DNA of 64,000 nucleotides from the NCBI GenBank assembly GCA_021787565.1, contig JAJYLT010000003.1, forward strand, positions 79,775 to 143,774, read 5' to 3'. The translations under genes were made by a program, and so were the position numbers. How positions within the stretch are numbered: position 1 is the first letter of the stretch; each line of letters starts with the position of its first letter. The notes under the pieces are model-generated. The model saw only the letters and a list, made by a program, of their open reading frames with translations, did no database searches and was not told where the DNA came from. The DNA comes from Acidobacteriota bacterium (GTDB lineage: Bacteria > Acidobacteriota > UBA4820 > DSQY01). Shown in pieces: positions 6-28,470 of this stretch.

Positions 6-1265
6 TTGAACTGGGGAGGCTCGGCCTTGGACACTCGGGACTGCTTCGAAAGGGCCGCCGATCTTGTGGGCTTGCCTCCCGGCGTCAGGCGCCTCCTCGC
101 CCTGCCCTGCGACGAGCTGACCCTCAACTTTCCCGTCAAGATGGACGACGAGTCGGTGGAGACCTTCCGCGGGTTTCGCGTGCATCACAACGACGCCCTG
201 GGACCCTACCTGGGAGGGCTCCGCTATCACCCCTCGGTGACCCTCAAGGCTATGCGGACCCAGGCGGCGCAGCGGACCTGGCAGGCCGCCCTGGCGGGCC
301 TTCCCTTCGGGGGCTCCATGGGGGGCATCCAGCTGGATCCCTCCCGTCACACGCTTTCGGAGCTGGAGCGGATCACGCGCCGCTTCGTGTTCGCCCTGGG
401 GAACAACATCGGGCCGGACTACGACGTCCTCACGACGGAGGTCAACACGAACAGCCAGATCATGAGCTGGGTCCTGGACACCTACTTTTCCACGGTACCA
501 CCCCAGGAGAGAAACCGCGCCTTCCCGGTGGTCACCGGCAAGCCGCTGGAGGCGGGCGGACTCCCGGGGCGGAACCGGGCGGTGGGTCTGGGCATGGCCA
601 TGCTCATCGAACGCTGGGCGAGCGATCACGCCGTCGACCTCGCCGCCTCGACCTACACGCTGCAGGGATTCGGAACGGTGGGGTCCTCGGTGGCGCGGGT
701 CCTCCAGTCCAAAGGCGCCAGGCTACTGGCCGTAGAGGATGTGACCGGAGGTGTATTCCATCCGGGCGGCATCGATGCGGAAAACCTGTTCGCTTACTCC
801 AGACGGCGTTTCGGTCTGCGGGGCTACCCGAGGGCGACCGCGCTCAGTCACGAGGCCTTCCTGCGCACTCCGGCCACGATCTTCATTCCGGCCGCCCTGG
901 CCACGGGCTTCACGAGCGAGCTGTTGGAGCTCCTGGACGTGCGCCTCGTGGCCGAGGGGGCTTGCATCCTGACGGAACCGGGAACGGACGACGTGCTGAG
1001 GCGAAAGGGGACGGACCTCCTGCCCGACGTGCTCTGCACCGCAGGAGGAGCCACCGCCAGCTATTTCGAGTGGCTCCAGAACAAGCGCGGCGAAAGGTGG
1101 GAGCTCGAGGAGGTGGAGAAGCGTCTCCAGGACACGCTATACCGCGCCTATGACCGGGTGGCAAGGGCCTCCCAAGAGTTCGGCGTCGATTGGAGGACCA
1201 CTAGCGTGGCCCTCGCCCTGGAGGATCTGGAGGGGGTCTACAGGGACCGGGGATTCTTCCCCTGA
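6..1265 (+). CDS. Glu/Leu/Phe/Val dehydrogenase family protein (GDH-like paralog 1); probably 5'-truncated by the window edge or TTG-initiated
   Basis: 419 aa ORF with GDH-family hallmarks (GGLRYHP, GLPFGG, QGFGTVG Rossmann, SYFEWLQN). The canonical catalytic Lys of GG-x-K-GG is Met (GGSMGG), the catalytic Asp position is Glu (TTEVNT), and the Lys89/Lys113 equivalents appear to be L/Q. The frame is open to position 1. Confidence 0.85.
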   Translation: MNWGGSALDTRDCFERAADLVGLPPGVRRLLALPCDELTLNFPVKMDDESVETFRGFRVHHNDALGPYLGGLRYHPSVTLKAMRTQAAQRTWQAALAGLPFGGSMGGIQLDPSRHTLSELERITRRFVFALGNNIGPDYDVLTTEVNTNSQIMSWVLDTYFSTVPPQERNRAFPVVTGKPLEAGGLPGRNRAVGLGMAMLIERWASDHAVDLAASTYTLQGFGTVGSSVARVLQSKGARLLAVEDVTGGVFHPGGIDAENLFAYSRRRFGLRGYPRATALSHEAFLRTPATIFIPAALATGFTSELLELLDVRLVAEGACILTEPGTDDVLRRKGTDLLPDVLCTAGGATASYFEWLQNKRGERWELEEVEKRLQDTLYRAYDRVARASQEFGVDWRTTSVALALEDLEGVYRDRGFFP

Positions 1266-21799: not shown

Positions 21800-23017
21800 T
21801 CACTCCAGGCGGCGGATGTACACGGCCGTGCGATCATCCGTGTACTTGCTGCCTACGCTGTAGGTGGCCACCAGATCCAGGAGGCCGCAGACCATCTGCC
21901 GGGCGTCAAACCGGTCGTAGTTGTCCCGCACGAAGGCCTGCACGCCGTCCTCTCCGAATTCTTTTCCGCTTGCATCGGAGGCCTCGCTGACGCCATCCGT
22001 GAACATGATGATGCTGTCCCCCGGATCCAGTTTGAAGAAGCCCCGCCGATAGGTGCTGTCGGAGGTTGGGCCAAGGACCCGGCCGCCCTCCGTCATGGGG
22101 TAGAAGCGGTCCTTCTTGACCCTGTAATAGAAGGGCGGATTGTGGCCCGCGTTGCAGTAGATGAAGTGCCCCCCTCCCTGCTCCAACTCGCCGTAAAACA
22201 AGGAGATGTACCGGGAGGTGAGGCGGGACGCATTGATGACGCGGTTCAGCTTCTCGAAGACCTTGACCGTCTTCTGGTCCTCCGAAAGCCCCATCCTCAG
22301 GCCCATCACCACGTCCCTCGCCTGGAGGGCGGCCGGGAGACCGTGACCCGTGGCGTCACCTATGGCCACGCCCAGGATGTTGGGATTGATGCGGATGAAG
22401 TCGTAGACGTCCCCCCCCACCAATTCGGCGGGCACGGAACGCCCGAAGATATCGAACCCTGGGAACTTCGGAGCCTCGTCCGGCAGGAGGGATAGCTGGA
22501 TCTCCCGGCTCTGCAGGATGAGGCCTTCGAGCTGCTCCTTGGCCAGCTTCAGGTTGATCGCGTGCCGGACCGTCGAAAGGGCGAAGAGTACGTCGTCCCG
22601 ATTCTCCAGCCATTCGCGCTGGACGCTGAAGGCGATGAGATAGGCATGGTTCGGGCCCACCGTGAGGGCCGCGAAGTGTTGCACCCCGAGCCTCTCCTCG
22701 AGTACGGGGTCCACCCCTTCGGAATCCAGCCCCATATAGATGAATCCTTTGCGGCGAACCACCTGGATGGGCGGATAGGTCTGGGGAATGAGGTATCCGA
22801 TGGGGACCGACGTGCCCGAGCCAAACTTGGCTTCGAGACGGTAGCCCTGCTCGTCGAGATCGTACCCGTACAGCCGGGCCCCGGAAAAGCCGAAATCCTC
22901 CGAAAAGTCCTTCAGGATTCTCTCGATGATAAGGCCCAGGGTCTCGCGCAGGCTCTCCTGGTTTTCTATTTCGCTCAGCTGGTTTTCGACCTTGCGGAAC
23001 AGCTCGTGGTAGTTCAT
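21800..23017 (-). CDS. GAF-domain PP2C-type Ser/Thr phosphatase (RsbU/SpoIIE family)
   Basis: N-terminal GAF plus SpoIIE/PP2C motifs (GDATGHGLPAAL, FTDGVSEA). Confidence 0.85.
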   Translation of the reverse strand: MNYHELFRKVENQLSEIENQESLRETLGLIIERILKDFSEDFGFSGARLYGYDLDEQGYRLEAKFGSGTSVPIGYLIPQTYPPIQVVRRKGFIYMGLDSEGVDPVLEERLGVQHFAALTVGPNHAYLIAFSVQREWLENRDDVLFALSTVRHAINLKLAKEQLEGLILQSREIQLSLLPDEAPKFPGFDIFGRSVPAELVGGDVYDFIRINPNILGVAIGDATGHGLPAALQARDVVMGLRMGLSEDQKTVKVFEKLNRVINASRLTSRYISLFYGELEQGGGHFIYCNAGHNPPFYYRVKKDRFYPMTEGGRVLGPTSDSTYRRGFFKLDPGDSIIMFTDGVSEASDASGKEFGEDGVQAFVRDNYDRFDARQMVCGLLDLVATYSVGSKYTDDRTAVYIRRLE

Positions 23018-23104: not shown

Positions 23105-23181
23105 TGGTCGGGACGACTGGATTTGAACCAGCGACCCCTTGCACCCCAAGCAAGTGCGCTACCAGGCTGCGCCACGTCCCG
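23105..23181 (-). tRNA. tRNA-Pro (anticodon GGG), CCA encoded
   Basis: 77 nt cloverleaf: acceptor CGGGACG/CGTCCCG, D-arm GCGC-AGCCTGGTA-GCGC, anticodon stem CTTGC/GCAAG with loop TTGGGGT (G37), T-arm GCTGG-TTCAAAT-CCAGT. Close to E. coli tRNA-Pro. Confidence 0.9.
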
Positions 23182-23240: not shown

Positions 23241-23648
23241 TTACCTGTCAAAAGGGGAAGGACGGCTCAACAAGGAGTTCAGCCGGGACAGCCCCTCTCG
23301 GAGCCGGCCCAGCACCTCTCCCGGCTCGCGCTGCTGAAGGGCCTCTCCCCTTACCTTGCGGGCCAACGAAAGGAAGTCCCGCGCTCCGCGGATCGTGAAC
23401 TTCCTCTCGTAGAGAAGCTCCTTGATCTGCAGAACGGCCTCGATGTCCCGCCTCCTGTAGAGCCGATGTCCCGATTGGGTCTTGTTGGGGCTCAACTGGG
23501 GGAACTGCTTCTCCCAGAACCGCAGGACGTGCGAGGGAACGCCGGTAATGTCGCAGACCTCGCCGATCTTGTAGTAGAGCTTCTGCGGGACCTGCTCCAA
23601 GGAGGAACGGGGGCCGGCCTCGCCTCTCTTTCTGACCGCATTTTTCAT
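23241..23648 (-). CDS. MerR-family transcriptional regulator
   Basis: HTH_MerR N-terminus (YKIGEVCDITGVPSHVLRFWE). ATG at 23648 overlaps the ihfA stop (ATGA). Confidence 0.8.
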   Translation of the reverse strand: MKNAVRKRGEAGPRSSLEQVPQKLYYKIGEVCDITGVPSHVLRFWEKQFPQLSPNKTQSGHRLYRRRDIEAVLQIKELLYERKFTIRGARDFLSLARKVRGEALQQREPGEVLGRLREGLSRLNSLLSRPSPFDR

Positions 23649-23923
23649 GGGTTCTTTCCGCCTGACCACTTGCGCGAGGGCACGAAGACGACGGTCTTGC
23701 GCGAGGGTATTCGCACCGGGGTCCCCTTTCCCATGTCCCGCCCCATCCGCGCCTTCCTCTCGACCACCTTGAAGGTGCCGAAACCCGAAATGACCAGCCT
23801 CCCCGTTTCCGAGAGCCCCGCGGTCATTCCCTGGATGACCTCCTCGACCAGCACTTGGGCTGCCTGGTAGGTGATGCCGCCATGAGCCATGTAGACCCGC
23901 CTGGCCAGTTCCGCGCGCGTCAT
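23645..23923 (-). CDS. ihfA: integration host factor alpha / HU-family DNA-binding protein
   Basis: MTRAELARRV...GFGTFKVVERKARMGRD. Strong GGGAGG RBS and an extended -10 (TGgTATATAAT) immediately upstream. Confidence 0.85.
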   Translation of the reverse strand: MTRAELARRVYMAHGGITYQAAQVLVEEVIQGMTAGLSETGRLVISGFGTFKVVERKARMGRDMGKGTPVRIPSRKTVVFVPSRKWSGGKNP

Positions 23924-24070
23924 AACGCCTCCCTTGAGCAGATTATATACCACAACCCCCTCACTTTCAATGAAAAAGGCTCCCCTCTCGCCAGGCTCAA
24001 GGGAAGTGGCCGCAGTAGCCGTGAACAGAGAATCCGGCCGCTGGTAACGGGAGGCTCCACCAAGGAGGAA

Positions 24071-24859: not shown

Positions 24860-25202
24860 GGCCCCTCTTCCTCCTGCCAGGCGGGGAGATTATACACCCT
24901 GCACCGGGAGTGGGTAAGACGCCCTCCATCATCGGGAAGGCACGTCTAGTCTCCGTCTCACCAAGACCCCCGCCGCAAACCGGGGCGAGGGGTCTTGACA
25001 GGGATGAACGACGGGTGTAGAGTTCATGGCCGTGAGAATCCCCCGCACATGCAGGGGGGCAGGGTGTGAGAACTTATGTTCTTGTGCGCTCCCGAGGTCG
25101 ATCCAGAGAATCCCGCCCCCCGGCACAAAGTGAACCTACAAGTTTCGGCATAAGATGGCTTATGCCGGTAGTCCGGTTTTTGCTTGGAAAGGAGAGAAGG
25201 AA

Positions 25203-25844
25203 ATGAGAAAGCTCACCGCTAGCCTCCTGGTTCTGGCCCTTGCTGCGCTGGTCGCCTGCGCCAAGCCGCCGCAGCAGCAGATCGACGCCGCCAAGGCCGC
25301 CCTCCAGGCCGCCAAGGCCGCCCAGGCCGACGTGTACGCCCCCGATGCCCTCAAGGCTGCCGAGGACAAGGCTGCCGCCCTGGACACCGAACTCGCCGCC
25401 CAGCAGAGCAAATTCTTCAAGAGCTACAAGGTGGCCACCCAGATGACCACCGAACTGCAGCAGCTGGCCGAGACGGCCAAGCAGGATGCCATCGCCGGCA
25501 AGGCGAAGGCCAAGGCCGACGCTGAAGCTTCCATCACCGCCGCCGACGCTTCCGTCACCGCCGCCCGCGAAGCCCTGAAGGCCGCCCCCAAGGGTAAGGG
25601 TTCCAAGGCCGACATTGAAGCCATGACCAAGGACGTCGATGACGCCGCCACGGCCATCGAGAGCGCCAAGGCCGACGCGACCGCCGAGAAGTACATGGAG
25701 GCCAAGACCACGGCCGACAGCGCCAAGGCTAAGGCCGACAACGTCGTCCAGCAGGTCGAGCAGGCCAAGGCCCTGAAAAAGAGCAGCATCCCCGCCCACA
25801 AGGCCCCCGCCCACAAGGCCCCCGCCCACAAGGGGAAGAAGTAA
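25203..25844 (+). CDS. alanine-rich predicted coiled-coil lipoprotein with C-terminal PAHKA x3 repeats and terminal Lys (KGKK)
   Basis: Signal peptide with lipobox LVAC, about 38% Ala with heptad-like periodicity, tandem 15-nt repeats at 25791-25835, and GGAGAGAAGG RBS. Confidence 0.8.
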   Translation: MRKLTASLLVLALAALVACAKPPQQQIDAAKAALQAAKAAQADVYAPDALKAAEDKAAALDTELAAQQSKFFKSYKVATQMTTELQQLAETAKQDAIAGKAKAKADAEASITAADASVTAAREALKAAPKGKGSKADIEAMTKDVDDAATAIESAKADATAEKYMEAKTTADSAKAKADNVVQQVEQAKALKKSSIPAHKAPAHKAPAHKGKK

Positions 25845-25862
25845 CCGTTTTTCCGCGATGCG

Positions 25863-25893
25863 AAAGGGGGCGGCGATGCCGCCCCCTTTTTTT
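25863..25893 (+). terminator. rho-independent terminator after lipoprotein gene
   Basis: GGGGGCGGC-gatg-CCGCCCCC hairpin followed by T7. Confidence 0.8.
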
Positions 25894-25904
25894 GGGGACC
25901 TGGC

Positions 25905-27056
25905 GTGAAGAAGCGGAAAACGACCCGAAAAATCATCCTGTTGATCATCCTCTGCGCGATCACCTGGTCCGCTTCGGTTTGGCTGGTCCCCCTCCTGGAC
26001 GGGAGCCAGTCCCCGCCCCTGGACCCCACGGGGAAGGGAGCGGAGAACCTCCTGTTCGCCGCCCGACGGGAGGGCGCCGAGCAGCTCTATCCCCAACGAT
26101 TGACGGCGTGCCAGGACGCCCTTAAGGAAGCCCGCTTCGAAACCAACCTTCAGCTGGCTTCCCAGTGGGGGACCAGGGATTTCGTCCGGCCCCAGCGCCT
26201 GCTGGACGGGGCCCAGGCCCAGGCCTTCCGACTTTGGAAGGACGTCGTTGACCACCGGCGCGAGGTGAAACCGGCGGCGGAGGCCATGATCGCGAGGGCG
26301 GACGATTCGCTCCAAAGAAGTGACGAGGTGGCAGACCTCAGCCGCCAAGACTATTACACGCGAGGGCACCTGGCCACCGCATTCATGCAGCTTCACCAGG
26401 CCCAGTCCTACTATCGCGCCGGCCAGTACGACAGGGCCCTCTCCGCCGCAACCCATTCTCTGGAGAGCAGCGACAAGGCCCTCAGCCGGTCCCGTCAGTA
26501 CCTGGAGCGCTTCGACGACCCCCACCATCTTCGGCTGTGGGAGGTATGGATCCGCGAGGCGGTCGCGTCATCGAGGAGCACCGGGATCGCCTTCGTCGTG
26601 ATCAAGGAGAAGCACAGGCTGGATGTGTACAAGAACGGCCGTCTGGCCCAGTCATTCCCCGTCGATCTTGGAGCCAATTCCGTCAGTCAGAAGGAGAGGG
26701 CCGGCGACAGGGCCACTCCCGAGGGCCTCTACCGCATCATCCGGAAAAAGGGCCGGGGGGCCACCAAGTACGGGTTCGCGCTTCTCCTCAACTACCCGAA
26801 CGAAGAGGACCGCCGGCGGTTCGCCGAGATGAAGGCCCACAGACAACTGACACGCCGGACCGGCATCGGCGGGCTCATCGAGATACACGGTACGGGAGGC
26901 AGGGGCTATGATTGGACCGACGGATGCATAGCCCCGGATGACGAGAACATGGAAAGGCTGTATCATGAGGCGATGATCGGGACGGTGGTGGCCATCGTGG
27001 GCAGCGACGGCAGCGGAGGCCCGATCCGGTCGGCTCTGATGGAAAAGAGACGATGA
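25905..27056 (+). CDS. L,D-transpeptidase (YkuD domain) with N-terminal TM anchor and large periplasmic domain
   Basis: GTG start. C-terminal YkuD catalytic region has His (IEIHGTGG) and Cys (TDGCIAP). Confidence 0.8.
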   Translation: MKKRKTTRKIILLIILCAITWSASVWLVPLLDGSQSPPLDPTGKGAENLLFAARREGAEQLYPQRLTACQDALKEARFETNLQLASQWGTRDFVRPQRLLDGAQAQAFRLWKDVVDHRREVKPAAEAMIARADDSLQRSDEVADLSRQDYYTRGHLATAFMQLHQAQSYYRAGQYDRALSAATHSLESSDKALSRSRQYLERFDDPHHLRLWEVWIREAVASSRSTGIAFVVIKEKHRLDVYKNGRLAQSFPVDLGANSVSQKERAGDRATPEGLYRIIRKKGRGATKYGFALLLNYPNEEDRRRFAEMKAHRQLTRRTGIGGLIEIHGTGGRGYDWTDGCIAPDDENMERLYHEAMIGTVVAIVGSDGSGGPIRSALMEKRR

Positions 27057-27787
27057 GCGACAACGGCACCGATCAGTCTTCCCCCCTATTGCGCAGCATC
27101 GAATCGAGCAAGAGAGAGCAGGCGAGGCGCGTCCGTCGCACCATCCTGGCCCTCCTCATCGGTACTGGCCTGCTTTGCGCGGCCGTCGCCCTCTTCTTCA
27201 TCTCGACGGGATACGGCTACGCGGACCTGAACGCGGCCTACATCTCCCGACACAGCATGGAGGTGCCGCAGGGGGGGGCCGTACCTCCCGAGAAGATCCT
27301 GGATCTCGCCGAAAAGAAGCTGGACAAGGTCAGGCCCAAGGGTATTTTCGTGGTGGTGGACCACGTTCGGAACCACCTCTACCTGCGCGACGGAGACAAG
27401 GTCATTCTGGATGCCCTCTGCTCGGCCGGAGCGGGGACTTTGCTGACCGATCCCAAATCGGACCGCCGCTGGGTGTTCGACACTCCCGTGGGCCGCTTCT
27501 TCGTCCGGGGCAAGCGCAAGGACCCCACCTGGACGGCTCCCGATTGGGATTACATCGAATCGGGCGAACCCTTCCCCAAGAACTATGCGGACCGAGTGCA
27601 GGAGGGGATGCTGGGTGAGTACGCCCTGGATTTGGGTGGAGGACCGTCGGGCTACATGATCCACGGCACGCTCTACACCCGCCTCCTGGGACGCAATGTG
27701 AGCCATGGCTGCGTGAGGGTCGGGCGAGACGACCTCCGCATCATCTGGCAGAAGGTGCCCATCGGGGCCACGGTGTTCATGTACTGA
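27053..27787 (+). CDS. L,D-transpeptidase (YkuD domain), membrane-anchored
   Basis: Canonical HG...SHGCVRV catalytic motif. Start overlaps the upstream stop (ATGA). Confidence 0.85.
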   Translation: MSDNGTDQSSPLLRSIESSKREQARRVRRTILALLIGTGLLCAAVALFFISTGYGYADLNAAYISRHSMEVPQGGAVPPEKILDLAEKKLDKVRPKGIFVVVDHVRNHLYLRDGDKVILDALCSAGAGTLLTDPKSDRRWVFDTPVGRFFVRGKRKDPTWTAPDWDYIESGEPFPKNYADRVQEGMLGEYALDLGGGPSGYMIHGTLYTRLLGRNVSHGCVRVGRDDLRIIWQKVPIGATVFMY

Positions 27788-28470
27788 TGAGAAGACGATT
27801 GCTTTTTCTGGCACTCCTGGCCTTCTCCGCGGCTGCCCTCGCATGGGCCGTGCGGGTGCTGGCCCAGACCGAGCCTCCGCAAGAGCCCTTGCCCCTCCGC
27901 GCCGCCCTGGCCGAACAGGAGGCCAGGCTGGCCACCTCGAACACCTTCTACCTCGAGCTGGATCTCTCCCATCCGGCCATCAAGCTCTGCCAGTCGGGGG
28001 TGGCCCTTGCCACCTACCCTATCGACTCCCTCAAGGTGGGGTATCCCCGCGTCCTCTTCTTTCCCCGAGTGCATGAGGGGAGATGGATCGGCGAAATCTG
28101 GACCGGAGGGCACCTCATCCCTCCGAAGATCATCAACCGGATCCGCATCACGCCGGGAAGCGTGCCCTCGGCTGAAATCGCGGTCCCCGCCTTGATCCCG
28201 CCGACCATGTCCGATCTGATCCCCGTGCCCCCCGTCTACACCATCGTCTTCGACGGCGGGAGAGTCATCCGCGTGAATCTGAACGGAAAGATCGTCGGAG
28301 CCGTTGGGCAGCCCGCCAAAGAGCGCGGGTGGTGGGCGGATTTCTTGGCGGGCCTGGGCCTTCGGAGGGCCGACTCCCTCCGCATCAGCGCCAGCATGCC
28401 GGCCAGTGACGGGGCCTCCCTCTTCCGGTCTTTTCCCGACAAGCCTCCAGAACTCCTGATCCTACCGTAG
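27787..28470 (+). CDS. hypothetical secreted protein (signal peptide), co-operonic with the L,D-transpeptidases
   Basis: Cleavable signal peptide MRRRLLFLALLAFSAAALAWA. Start overlaps the preceding stop by 1 nt. No recognisable domain. Confidence 0.6.
   Translation: MRRRLLFLALLAFSAAALAWAVRVLAQTEPPQEPLPLRAALAEQEARLATSNTFYLELDLSHPAIKLCQSGVALATYPIDSLKVGYPRVLFFPRVHEGRWIGEIWTGGHLIPPKIINRIRITPGSVPSAEIAVPALIPPTMSDLIPVPPVYTIVFDGGRVIRVNLNGKIVGAVGQPAKERGWWADFLAGLGLRRADSLRISASMPASDGASLFRSFPDKPPELLILP

Follow-up and report, generated by a model that had tools for sequence, protein, structure and literature searches.

Why should a lipoprotein gene of an Acidobacteriota bacterium stand directly upstream of two genes for YkuD-domain proteins? 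The preliminary description of this locus had compared the arrangement with Braun's lipoprotein, Lpp, which is restricted to some Gammaproteobacteria. The question is, therefore, whether the locus encodes a counterpart of Lpp and, if so, through which residue and by which enzyme the lipoprotein would be joined to peptidoglycan.

Gene order and expression signals

The four genes are located on one strand of the window, i.e., the whole 64,000-nucleotide stretch of DNA analyzed (Table 1). The 213–amino acid open reading frame with lipobox LVAC reported earlier was confirmed, and its start was placed at 25203 rather than at the upstream ATG at 25155 because the ribosome-binding sequence AGGAGAG sits 6 nt before the former. 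The strong terminator described after the lipoprotein stop codon was recovered as a hairpin with U7 (ΔG of −32.9 kcal/mol, z of −3.95); 33/76 loci, among them almost every member of the window's clade, have an equivalent hairpin followed by a T-run. Two YkuD genes and a fourth open reading frame with overlapping junctions were likewise found, with Pfam matches to YkuD (PF03734; cut-off of 23.4 bits) at E = 1.4e-18 (68.3 bits) for ldt1 and E = 1.3e-17 (65.2 bits) for ldt2; the overlaps are 4 nt between ldt1 and ldt2 and 1 nt between ldt2 and orf4. Three promoter-like sites, defined by consensus match only, were found in the region versus 0.4 expected. Codon bias is strongest in the lipoprotein gene, whose ENC of 30.6 is the lowest among the window genes compared (39 others and the cassette; median of 38.2). 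Together with the terminator before the enzyme genes, this suggests that the lipoprotein is made in large stoichiometric excess.

Table 1. Coordinates of the cassette genes and their features in the window.
Feature	Position	Strand	Remarks
Promoter-like site TTGACA-17-TAGAGT	24995..25023	+	~180 nt 5′ of lipoprotein ATG; 10/12 consensus positions
Shine-Dalgarno AGGAGAG	25190..25196	+	6 nt 5′ of ATG 25203; read from sequence
Rod lipoprotein gene (213 aa)	25203..25844	+	ORF; signal peptide with lipobox LVAC, predicted five-helix DUF4398-related rod, disordered basic tail
Cys19 codon	25257..25259	+	Lipidated N-terminal residue of mature protein; Cys in 99% of 146 aligned sequences
Loop A128-P-K-G-K132-G-S-K-A-D137	25584..25613	+	Between helices 3 and 4; K132 is a candidate attachment or docking residue
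Disordered basic C-terminal tail, residues 196–213, KKSSIPAHKAPAHKAPAHKGKK	25788..25841	+	pLDDT 45–73
Intrinsic terminator	25862..25893	+	9-bp G+C stem, GAU loop, U7; between lipoprotein gene and ldt1
ldt1 (383 aa, GTG start)	25905..27056	+	N-terminal hydrophobic segment, paralogous rod (residues ~30–200), hydrolase-type YkuD (residues 231–364)
ldt1 catalytic Cys341 codon	26925..26927	+	Motif GC-I-A; second residue after Cys is Ala instead of Arg
ldt2 (244 aa)	27053..27787	+	Short cytoplasmic tail, one TM helix (residues ~31–52), ~45-aa linker, transpeptidase-type YkuD (residues 99–242)
ldt2 catalytic Cys220 codon	27710..27712	+	Motif HGC-V-R; second residue after Cys is Arg
orf4 (227 aa)	27787..28470	+	Predicted secreted YkuD-fold protein

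The order lipoprotein-ldt1-ldt2 on the same strand was found in 76 of 80 genome loci, that is, in all 76 that could be evaluated (in the remaining four, the contig ends <750 bp downstream). The cassette occurs in at least six phyla: Acidobacteriota, Nitrospirota, Zixibacteria, Ignavibacteriales, Thermodesulfobacteriota, and Eiseniibacteriota; Thermoanaerobaculum aquaticum is one of the carriers. Since the order is kept in every evaluable locus while the flanking genes vary across the 80 genomes, linkage of the lipoprotein with the YkuD genes is far beyond chance. When metagenome loci were searched from the ldt2 side, ldt1 was located upstream in 47/47 and the lipoprotein gene in 35/36 cases. 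One locus (L115) has ldt1-ldt2 without the lipoprotein. The preliminary description had proposed a functional link of the lipoprotein with L,D-transpeptidase genes and had named homologs never linked to such genes elsewhere as evidence to the contrary; decisively, the link was kept in 76/76 genome loci and in 35/36 loci seeded with ldt2. A chance neighborhood, in which an unrelated Ala/Lys-rich lipoprotein gene happens to lie upstream of an ldt operon, would fit the terminator that parts these genes in the window genome. It is ruled out by the synteny data, and the spacing of 4 to 30 nt between cassette genes in Nitrospirota and relatives, as well as the paralog of the lipoprotein held by ldt1 (see below), also speaks against it.

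Fold and lysines of the lipoprotein

As expected of an Lgt/LspA substrate, the lipoprotein has a signal peptide ending in a lipobox (residues 16 to 19) whose Cys is 99% conserved; a lipobox was detected in 139 of 145 representatives sharing ≤50% identity. The +2 residue is Ala, Ser, or Gly and never Asp, the sorting rule for this position being that of E. coli. The length of the mature protein is tightly fixed (median of 181 amino acids, interquartile range of 179 to 183). The alanine content of the window protein was computed as 29.6%, below the ~38% given earlier.

An Lpp-like coiled-coil trimer had also been suggested, and neither profile searches nor modeling supported it. A Pfam scan of the window lipoprotein at E ≤ 1 returned only DUF4245, CPDase, DUF4398, and ColG_sub, without LPP (PF04728), which matched 0/81 lipoprotein homologs. 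DUF4398 (PF14346) scored 11.9 bits against the window protein, below its gathering cut-off of 27.9 (E = 0.34, residues 26 to 106), and matched 27/81 homologs at E ≤ 0.01 (best E of 7e-9). The AlphaFold2 model of a single chain, built from an 81-sequence alignment (pLDDT of 89, pTM of 0.75), is a self-contained monomer in which five antiparallel helices (residues 24 to 39, 47 to 68, 76 to 126, 134 to 160, and 164 to 195) form a closed rod, and the protein shares the three-helix-bundle fold of the solved DUF4398 member PA2901 (4fm3). As modeled, the lipoprotein is thus a DUF4398-related five-helix rod, a predicted monomer, and not Lpp-like. Judging by helix lengths, the rod would be ~8 to 9 nm long with its termini at opposite ends; the chain folds back, and the tether much longer than Lpp that had been envisaged was not borne out.

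The lipoprotein ends in PAHKAPAHKAPAHKGKK. Throughout the family, the tail is short and K/R-rich and its last residue is variable: among the 145 representatives, it is K in 25 (17%), R in 53 (37%), and another residue in 67, G (18), S (17), A, and T among these. The PAHKA repeats noted earlier are present but limited to the window protein and its nearest relatives. These data bear on the original proposal of Lpp-style attachment through the C-terminal lysine by two transpeptidases. The window protein and most of its close relatives do end in -KK (K last in 88/120), as do Dickeya Lpp and OutB, in which many substitutions within the motif are tolerated (PMC12274547). Family-wide, however, a Lys is found within the last five residues in 87/145 representatives and none in 58/145, while the enzyme genes are kept in all; in addition, a terminal Lys is found in ~20% of the periplasmic proteins of E. 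coli (PMC12274547), and the Arg of transpeptidases is present in just one enzyme of the pair. Attachment by the terminal lysine is, accordingly, quite improbable.

The sole near-invariant lysine of the family is K132, in a loop with the consensus AP-x-GKG-S/T. Across 146 diverse sequences, conservation is 97% for A128, 98% for P129, 92% for G131, 99% for K132, 81% for G133, and 86% for D137. The loop was modeled with a pLDDT of 93 to 96 and, by topology, would sit at the distal tip of the rod. It is missing from the paralogous rod of ldt1, where the alignment has a 7-residue gap. A single Gly-flanked lysine conserved to this degree would be expected of a residue that is modified rather than of one at an interface.

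Active sites of the YkuD proteins

The HG...GC catalytic motif is kept in all ldt1 and ldt2 orthologs. An Arg as the second residue past the catalytic Cys marks YkuD transpeptidases and is missing in DpaA and LD-carboxypeptidases (10.1101/2021.02.21.432140; PMC10653827). In ldt2, the motif HGTxYxRLLGxxV[ST]HGC[IV]R, with Cys-x-Arg, was present in 73/73 loci. In ldt1, the motif was HG..GC[VI][AS] in 74/74 loci (Cys-x-Ala/Ser), and none had the Arg. Of the two L,D-transpeptidases originally described, one therefore stands, ldt2, while ldt1 is a hydrolase-type YkuD, as are DpaA and LD-carboxypeptidases. The membrane anchoring ascribed to both holds for ldt2, with its one TM helix; in the window genome, ldt1 has an N-terminal hydrophobic segment without a lipobox, which leaves its anchoring uncertain. 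The ldt1 proteins of many other phyla are lipoproteins too and begin, as does the rod lipoprotein, with C-x-x-P-P.

By sequence, ldt2 is a distant relative only of LdtA, LdtB, and LdtE: NCBIfam models of these types were the best hits, all far below their cut-offs (at most 44 bits, where 583 are required). The nearest Protein Data Bank entry is 4lzh, a Klebsiella LDT. A Pfam scan found no LysM domain in ldt2.

The N-terminal domain of ldt1 is paralogous to the lipoprotein over its full length (hhalign probability of 99.1%, E = 1e-18, 168 columns). Among Protein Data Bank entries, profile searches with ldt1 retrieved hydrolytic YkuDs only (Bd1075, DpaA, Csd6, and Pgp2), the LD-carboxypeptidase Bd1075 being the closest solved relative. 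Identity of the ldt1 catalytic domain to E. coli DpaA is 22 to 32%, and the counterparts of DpaA K83, C143, and A145 are invariant. The L2 segment has the length of that of DpaA (SKYYKALLINYPN versus SRYYKAINIGFPN in DpaA), and KYGF is found in the ldt1 of the window at the DpaA Tyr pair. The active-site features of DpaA/YafK, i.e., Ala/Asn replacing Arg, the Lys83 equivalent, and a short L2 with the Tyr109 equivalent, are thus all present in ldt1, although its score against the NCBIfam equivalog DpaA/YafK (NF040599) is 22.3 bits, with a cut-off of 365. The hallmark of the LD-carboxypeptidases Csd6, Pgp2, and Bd1075 is an aromatic D-Ala pocket, formed by Tyr133 and Trp158 in Csd6 (PMC10653827). 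The pocket Trp, two positions before the catalytic His, was not found in ldt1, which has a near-invariant Glu there (IEIHG), and neither were the one to two extra L2 residues of LD-carboxypeptidases. Even so, the sequence of ldt1 would suit an LD-carboxypeptidase as well as a DpaA-type enzyme. The product of orf4 is a predicted YkuD-fold pseudoenzyme, lacking conserved catalytic Cys/His, and is encoded only in the cassettes of Acidobacteriota and Eiseniibacteriota.

The main competing explanation is that the lipoprotein is never attached and its GKG tip docks on ldt2 and/or ldt1, activating or positioning them. The outer-membrane lipoproteins LpoA and LpoB, which reach through the wall and activate PBP1A and PBP1B, provide a model. 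In this case, ldt2 could simply make 3-3 cross-links and ldt1 would trim tetrapeptides as an LD-carboxypeptidase, to which the profile relationship with Bd1075 is congenial; the two rods might associate laterally, their paralogy suggesting possible heterodimerization. Strict synteny suits a protein complex as well as an enzyme-substrate pair, the terminal Lys is not conserved, and a dead YkuD fold in the operon suggests regulatory protein-protein contacts. In contrast, the large excess suggested by codon bias and the separating terminator would be unusual for a regulator, ldt1 is without the Trp that defines LD-carboxypeptidases, and the K132 signature looks rather like that of a modified residue. 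We therefore consider docking without attachment a serious but rather unlikely explanation.

A proposed tether and its known counterparts

A rod lipoprotein that is kept across phyla beside one joining-type and one cutting-type enzyme looks like an independently evolved counterpart of Braun's lipoprotein. We put at about one in two the probability that it is a peptidoglycan-linked spacer with a dedicated ligase and a releasing amidase, an analog and not a homolog of Lpp. This reading builds on the genes present and their synteny, on the signatures of the active sites, on the paralogy of the rods, and on predicted folds; from these, we infer a covalent link, the residue that accepts it, which way each enzyme works, and the membrane involved, which is probably the outer membrane.

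The locus would then be a self-contained envelope tether cassette. The abundant lipoprotein would form a rigid five-helix rod with a lipid anchor at one end and the exposed GKG loop (K132) and short basic tail at the other. With a tetrapeptide stem of peptidoglycan as its acyl donor, the ldt2 protein, an inner membrane–anchored Arg-type L,D-transpeptidase, would move the meso-DAP carbonyl onto a lysine ε-amine at the rod tip; K132 is the likeliest acceptor, and a tail lysine may also serve in the window's clade. The rod, anchored in a membrane by its lipid, would thereby be bound covalently to the cell wall. Carried on a paralogous rod of equal length, ldt1, a DpaA/LD-carboxypeptidase-type hydrolase, could reach the same periplasmic height and sever the bond, which would render the tether reversible, and orf4 may act as an accessory binding or regulatory subunit. 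This specific form, a length-calibrated reversible tether independent of Lpp in which ldt2 joins K132 to meso-DAP and ldt1 frees it, is put forward tentatively. We know of no published L,D-transpeptidase acting on an internal, loop-borne lysine, except for the incompletely characterized LimB, and our literature search found no experiment on any cassette member.

DpaA-like proteins are known in Acidobacteria without Lpp, their substrates being unidentified (10.1101/2021.02.21.432140). If the tether reading is true, such "orphan" enzymes of Lpp-less phyla gain a substrate, the covalent tethering of lipoproteins is not peculiar to Gammaproteobacteria, and the tether has a wide distribution that takes in Acidobacteriota, Nitrospirota, Zixibacteria, Ignavibacteria, Thermodesulfobacteriota, and relatives.

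LpoA and LpoB resemble the cassette lipoprotein in being elongated and able to span the distance from the membrane to a peptidoglycan enzyme; they differ in having no homology to it, in not being encoded with their targets, and in that these are PBPs and not YkuD proteins. A similar architecture is found in DUF4398-type or helical-rod lipoproteins (Pseudomonas aeruginosa PA2901, Leptospira LipL71/LruA, and Borrelia BB0323), which combine a lipid anchor, a helical rod, and a peptidoglycan-directed element, a LysM domain that binds peptidoglycan in LipL71/LruA and BB0323. The cassette rod has twice the length of DUF4398 and ends in the GKG loop and basic tail instead of LysM; its genetic tie to YkuD enzymes suggests covalent rather than non-covalent contact with the wall. 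L,D-transpeptidases also attach non-Lpp proteins to meso-DAP, namely, Dickeya OutB, Coxiella LimB, and β-barrels of Alpha- and Gammaproteobacteria, and the proteins so attached can belong to either membrane. However, OutB uses an Lpp-like C-terminal box, the β-barrels use an N-terminal amine, and all of them lack both a dedicated enzyme cassette and the fold of the rod lipoprotein.

DpaA shares with ldt1 the catalytic domain and L2 length described above, while ldt1 adds an N-terminal rod of ~170 amino acids and a 13–amino acid insertion and has Glu at DpaA Met133. A further parallel is the E. coli system of Lpp, LdtA/B/C, and DpaA/LdtF. Both comprise an abundant lipoprotein spacer of fixed length with a basic C terminus and a pair of enzymes for attachment and detachment, a Cys-x-Arg YkuD and a Cys-x-Ala YkuD hydrolase, and the Lpp trimer is similar in length to the predicted rod. 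Lpp, in contrast, is a 58–amino acid single helix forming a parallel trimer, without sequence or fold relationship to the ~181–amino acid rod, whose conserved lysine is internal rather than terminal. The E. coli genes are scattered, whereas here they form one cassette, with a TM-anchored transpeptidase without LysM and a hydrolase fused to a rod paralogous to its candidate substrate.

Gene order of the cassette

The linkage of the lipoprotein gene to the two YkuD-domain genes downstream, ldt1 and ldt2, is the strongest result of the analysis. When 185,579 species were scanned, each through one genome, 379 relatives were recovered, and the best 80 of the 379 loci were examined by tblastn of the window proteins. 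Order and strand of the three genes were constant in 76 of these 80; in the remaining four, the contig stops less than 750 bp downstream of the lipoprotein gene. Carriers belong to Acidobacteriota (Thermoanaerobaculia, Aminicenantes, Vicinamibacterales, Holophagales, and Terriglobia), Nitrospirota/Thermodesulfovibrionia, Zixibacteria, Ignavibacteriales, Thermodesulfobacteriota, and Eiseniibacteriota. As neighbors of the cassette, thiD, ihf, merR, and rsmA are common to the window and its near relatives only. To remove ascertainment bias, the search was reversed and run from the ldt2 side in metagenomes: all 47 evaluable loci had ldt1 upstream of ldt2, and 35 of 36 had the lipoprotein upstream of ldt1. 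The co-occurrence with L,D-transpeptidase genes elsewhere, on which the preliminary description depended, is thus borne out, and a chance neighborhood is excluded by the order kept in both sets of loci. In one evaluable locus alone (L115:1559-3725), ldt1-ldt2 lack an upstream rod lipoprotein gene, and a TonB C-terminal-domain-like gene takes its place.

That a lipoprotein can tie the outer membrane covalently to the cell wall is textbook knowledge. The best-supported reading of the cassette, with a probability of about 0.5, is that of a rod lipoprotein linked to peptidoglycan, a dedicated ligase (ldt2) that would make this link, and a rod-mounted amidase (ldt1) that would release the protein again; Lys132 (K132), in the loop between helices 3 and 4 of the lipoprotein, is the favored acceptor. 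Every synteny result also fits the main rival, a non-covalent adaptor or activator of two wall-remodeling enzymes, a role that we regard as possible but rather unlikely; if true, it would make the protein the first lipoprotein regulator of YkuD enzymes, which would also be new.

All four cassette genes are co-oriented, and the overlapping stop and start codons reported for the YkuD genes are confirmed. Near the cassette, Rfam found only a tRNA gene, which lies between a phosphatase gene and a MerR-like/IHF-like gene pair; of the relatives, only the closest (loci L001-L013) share this layout. By eye, the translations of the large genes flanking the cassette on either side look like sensor-domain plus PP2C-type (SpoIIE-like) phosphatases, and the downstream one starts with an FHA-like segment.

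Features of the cassette and its surroundings (window coordinates unless residues are stated)
Feature	Position	Strand	Remarks
PP2C/SpoIIE-like phosphatase gene	21800-23017	-	
tRNA gene	23108-23181	-	Rfam 63 bits
MerR-like/IHF-like gene pair	23241-23953		
Promoter-like TTGACA-17-TAGAGT	24995-25023		~180 nt upstream of lipoprotein gene
Possible mRNA leader	25024-25202		
Small hairpin and T-run	25164-25177		
Lipoprotein gene	25203-25844	+	
Tail with triple PAHKA repeat	25788-25841		
Lipoprotein helices (AlphaFold2)	residues 24-39, 47-68, 76-126, 134-160, 164-195		third helix 51 residues
ldt1	25905-27056	+	overlaps ldt2 by 4 nt; YkuD domain well above Pfam cut-off
ldt1 Glu326 codon	26880-26882	+	
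ldt2	27053-27787	+	overlaps orf4 by 1 nt; YkuD domain well above Pfam cut-off
orf4	27787-28470	+	translationally coupled to ldt2; predicted YkuD fold, no conserved Cys or His
Phosphatase gene with FHA-like segment	30545-32245	+	

The rod lipoprotein and its candidate acceptor lysine

The lipoprotein ORF encodes 213 amino acids, and the lipobox LVAC closes its signal peptide. ATG 25203 is the best start since AGGAGAG lies 6 nt upstream of it; the alternative start at 25155, which would lengthen the ORF, lacks such a motif. If the promoter-like site is real, the mRNA leader would be ~180 nt; it has no Rfam match, and a small hairpin with a T-run lies immediately 5′ of the ribosome-binding site. 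Directly 3′ of the stop codon, RNA folding showed a 9-bp G+C hairpin followed by U7 (dG of −32.9 kcal/mol, z of −3.95 versus shuffles), in agreement with the strong terminator originally proposed, although an automated terminator scan returned no match there. A terminator-like hairpin with a T-run separates the lipoprotein gene from ldt1 in 33/76 loci, among them almost every locus of the window's clade; Nitrospirota and others have a spacing of just 4 to 30 nt. When the cassette was compared with 39 other ORFs of the window, the lipoprotein gene had the lowest ENC (30.6 versus a median of 38.2; ldt1, 41.5; ldt2, 38.1; orf4, 44.5), and it prefers GCC, ACC, and GAA codons, as is typical of highly expressed genes. 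As indirect evidence, codon bias and terminator fit a structural protein that would be made in excess over its enzymes.

The protein has no Pfam or NCBIfam match above cut-off and no LPP match, and a sequence profile search of the PDB gave nothing meaningful. A word-indexed search found 244 relatives of 195 to 215 amino acids. When a profile was run exhaustively against 1.84 billion cluster representatives, the matches numbered 364 at E ≤ 1e-30, 1540 at E ≤ 1e-10, and 2986 at E ≤ 1e-3; nearly all of the best 150 have 195 to 210 amino acids. Pfam DUF4398 was reached by 27 of 81 members (best E of 7e-9).

AlphaFold2 modeled five helices followed by a disordered tail (pLDDT of 89.2, pTM of 0.75). 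Given the up-down-up connectivity and the helix lengths, we infer a stack of two three-helix bundles built on the long central helix, with the lipidated Cys19 at one end and the 127-133 loop and C-terminal tail at the other, probably ~8 to 9 nm away. This five-helix geometry argues against the Lpp-like trimeric coiled coil of the preliminary description. Its tether “much longer” than Lpp does not follow from the model geometry either, and its alanine content of 38% is corrected to 29.6% (lysine, 14.6%). No internal duplication of the rod halves was detectable (probability of 2%), and the protein is therefore not called a tandem repeat. Outer-membrane localization is predicted from one feature, the lack of Asp at +2, read by the E. 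coli rule.

The C-terminal lysine had been taken as the defining attachment residue. Close relatives usually end in -KK, an ending that looked like those of Lpp and OutB of Dickeya (PMC12274547), and Lys was last in 73% of 120 relatives from a word-indexed search, a sample in which close ones are overrepresented, given that shared words drive such a search. The exhaustive search led to the opposite view: the last residues of 145 diverse sequences included R (53), K (25), G (18), S (17), and A (12), and 58 sequences lacked lysine in the final five positions. What stays conserved is a short basic tail, and we consider the exact Lpp-style C-terminal attachment improbable. The mature length is tightly fixed (median of 181 amino acids, interquartile range of 179 to 183). 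Tail repeats and extensions differ among homologs, so tail length varies while rod length is fixed. The triple PAHKA repeat, seen in the window and in homolog P0001, is a recent, clade-specific expansion; P0050 has a similar AHG repeat, and P0012 and P0017 have a proline-rich extension.

Much more conserved than the tail is the loop A128-P-x-G-K132-G-[S/T]-x-x-D137 (K132, 99%; P129, 98%; A128, 97%; G131, 92%). K132, flanked by glycines, is the only near-invariant lysine of the protein, and the modeled topology would place it at the distal tip of the rod. It is the best candidate if the lipoprotein is a transpeptidation acceptor; within the attachment model, we favor it by a good margin over a tail lysine. 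If the lipoprotein is not an acceptor, the loop is the likely docking site.

Two YkuD enzymes of predicted opposite kinds

YkuD domains of the transpeptidase type are marked by Arg at the second position after the catalytic Cys, and hydrolytic ones such as the amidase DpaA and the LD-carboxypeptidases Csd6 and Pgp2 by Ala or Asn (10.1101/2021.02.21.432140; PMC10653827). The motif HGTxYxRLLGxxV[ST]HGC[IV]R was present in 73/73 ldt2 orthologs and HG...GC[VI][AS] in 74/74 ldt1 orthologs. By sequence, the two are thus opposite kinds of YkuD enzymes: of the two L,D-transpeptidases originally proposed, ldt2 retains that assignment with its Cys-x-Arg, whereas ldt1, with hydrolase-type Cys-x-Ala/Ser, does not. 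The nearest solved relative of ldt2 is a Klebsiella LdtA-C-type enzyme; unlike it, ldt2 has an N-terminal transmembrane helix and no LysM domain.

The PDB matches of the ldt1 profile are hydrolytic YkuD proteins only (Bd1075, DpaA [8ikr], Csd6, and Pgp2). At 22 to 32% identity to E. coli DpaA, ldt1 retains counterparts of K83, C143, and A145 and an L2 segment of the same length (SKYYKALLINYPN versus SRYYKAINIGFPN), and it has a near-invariant Glu at the position of the D-Ala-pocket Trp by which LD-carboxypeptidases are defined. Because of these features, its predicted activity is DpaA-like rather than carboxypeptidase-like, although it is not an equivalog (22 bits versus a cut-off of 365 for the NCBIfam DpaA model). 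Glu326 of ldt1, near-invariant in orthologs, lies two residues before the catalytic His (IEIHG), where E. coli DpaA has Met; as speculation, its negative charge might suit a basic substrate.

Profile-profile comparison aligned lipoprotein residues 15-189 with ldt1 residues ~30-200 (probability of 99.1%, E of 1e-18, 168 columns), the sole gap being a 7-residue deletion in ldt1 at the conserved loop. Since the ldt1 rod is a copy of the lipoprotein, the hydrolase domain would sit at the end of a rod like the one bearing the lipoprotein tip. In Nitrospirota, Aminicenantes-like, Zixibacteria, Ignavibacteriales, and Thermodesulfobacteriota versions, ldt1 has its own lipobox and the same x-x-P-P start (lipobox loci: L042, L043, L046, L049, L054, L058, L060, L061, L063, L067, L071, L072, L075, and L078-L080), whereas ldt1 of the window's clade has another residue in place of this Cys (LLDGSQSPP), after a hydrophobic segment. 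The way in which the hydrolase is anchored therefore changed in evolution.

The orf4 product looks like a putative pseudoenzyme and is found only in Acidobacteriota and Eiseniibacteriota versions of the cassette. Its YkuD relationship is suggested by the predicted fold only, as hhalign against YkuD domains was not significant.

Comparison with the Lpp system

The full-text literature searched, which covers few subscription journals so that absence is not proof, held no description of the cassette or of the family beyond the DUF4398 label. The cassette offers a candidate substrate, ligase, releasing enzyme, and acceptor residue in hundreds of species of poorly studied, environmentally dominant phyla. 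An internal lysine as acceptor would, if true, add to the range of acceptors known for L,D-transpeptidases. Current surveys restrict covalent tethering by a lipoprotein to a few orders of Gammaproteobacteria, and Lpp itself has been described from just four. DpaA-like proteins were noted in Acidobacteria by the discoverers of DpaA, who left their substrates open (10.1101/2021.02.21.432140); the tether, if real, would answer this question for phyla without Lpp. The cassette is predicted to do the work of Lpp/LdtA-C/DpaA with unrelated components, as a functional analogue.
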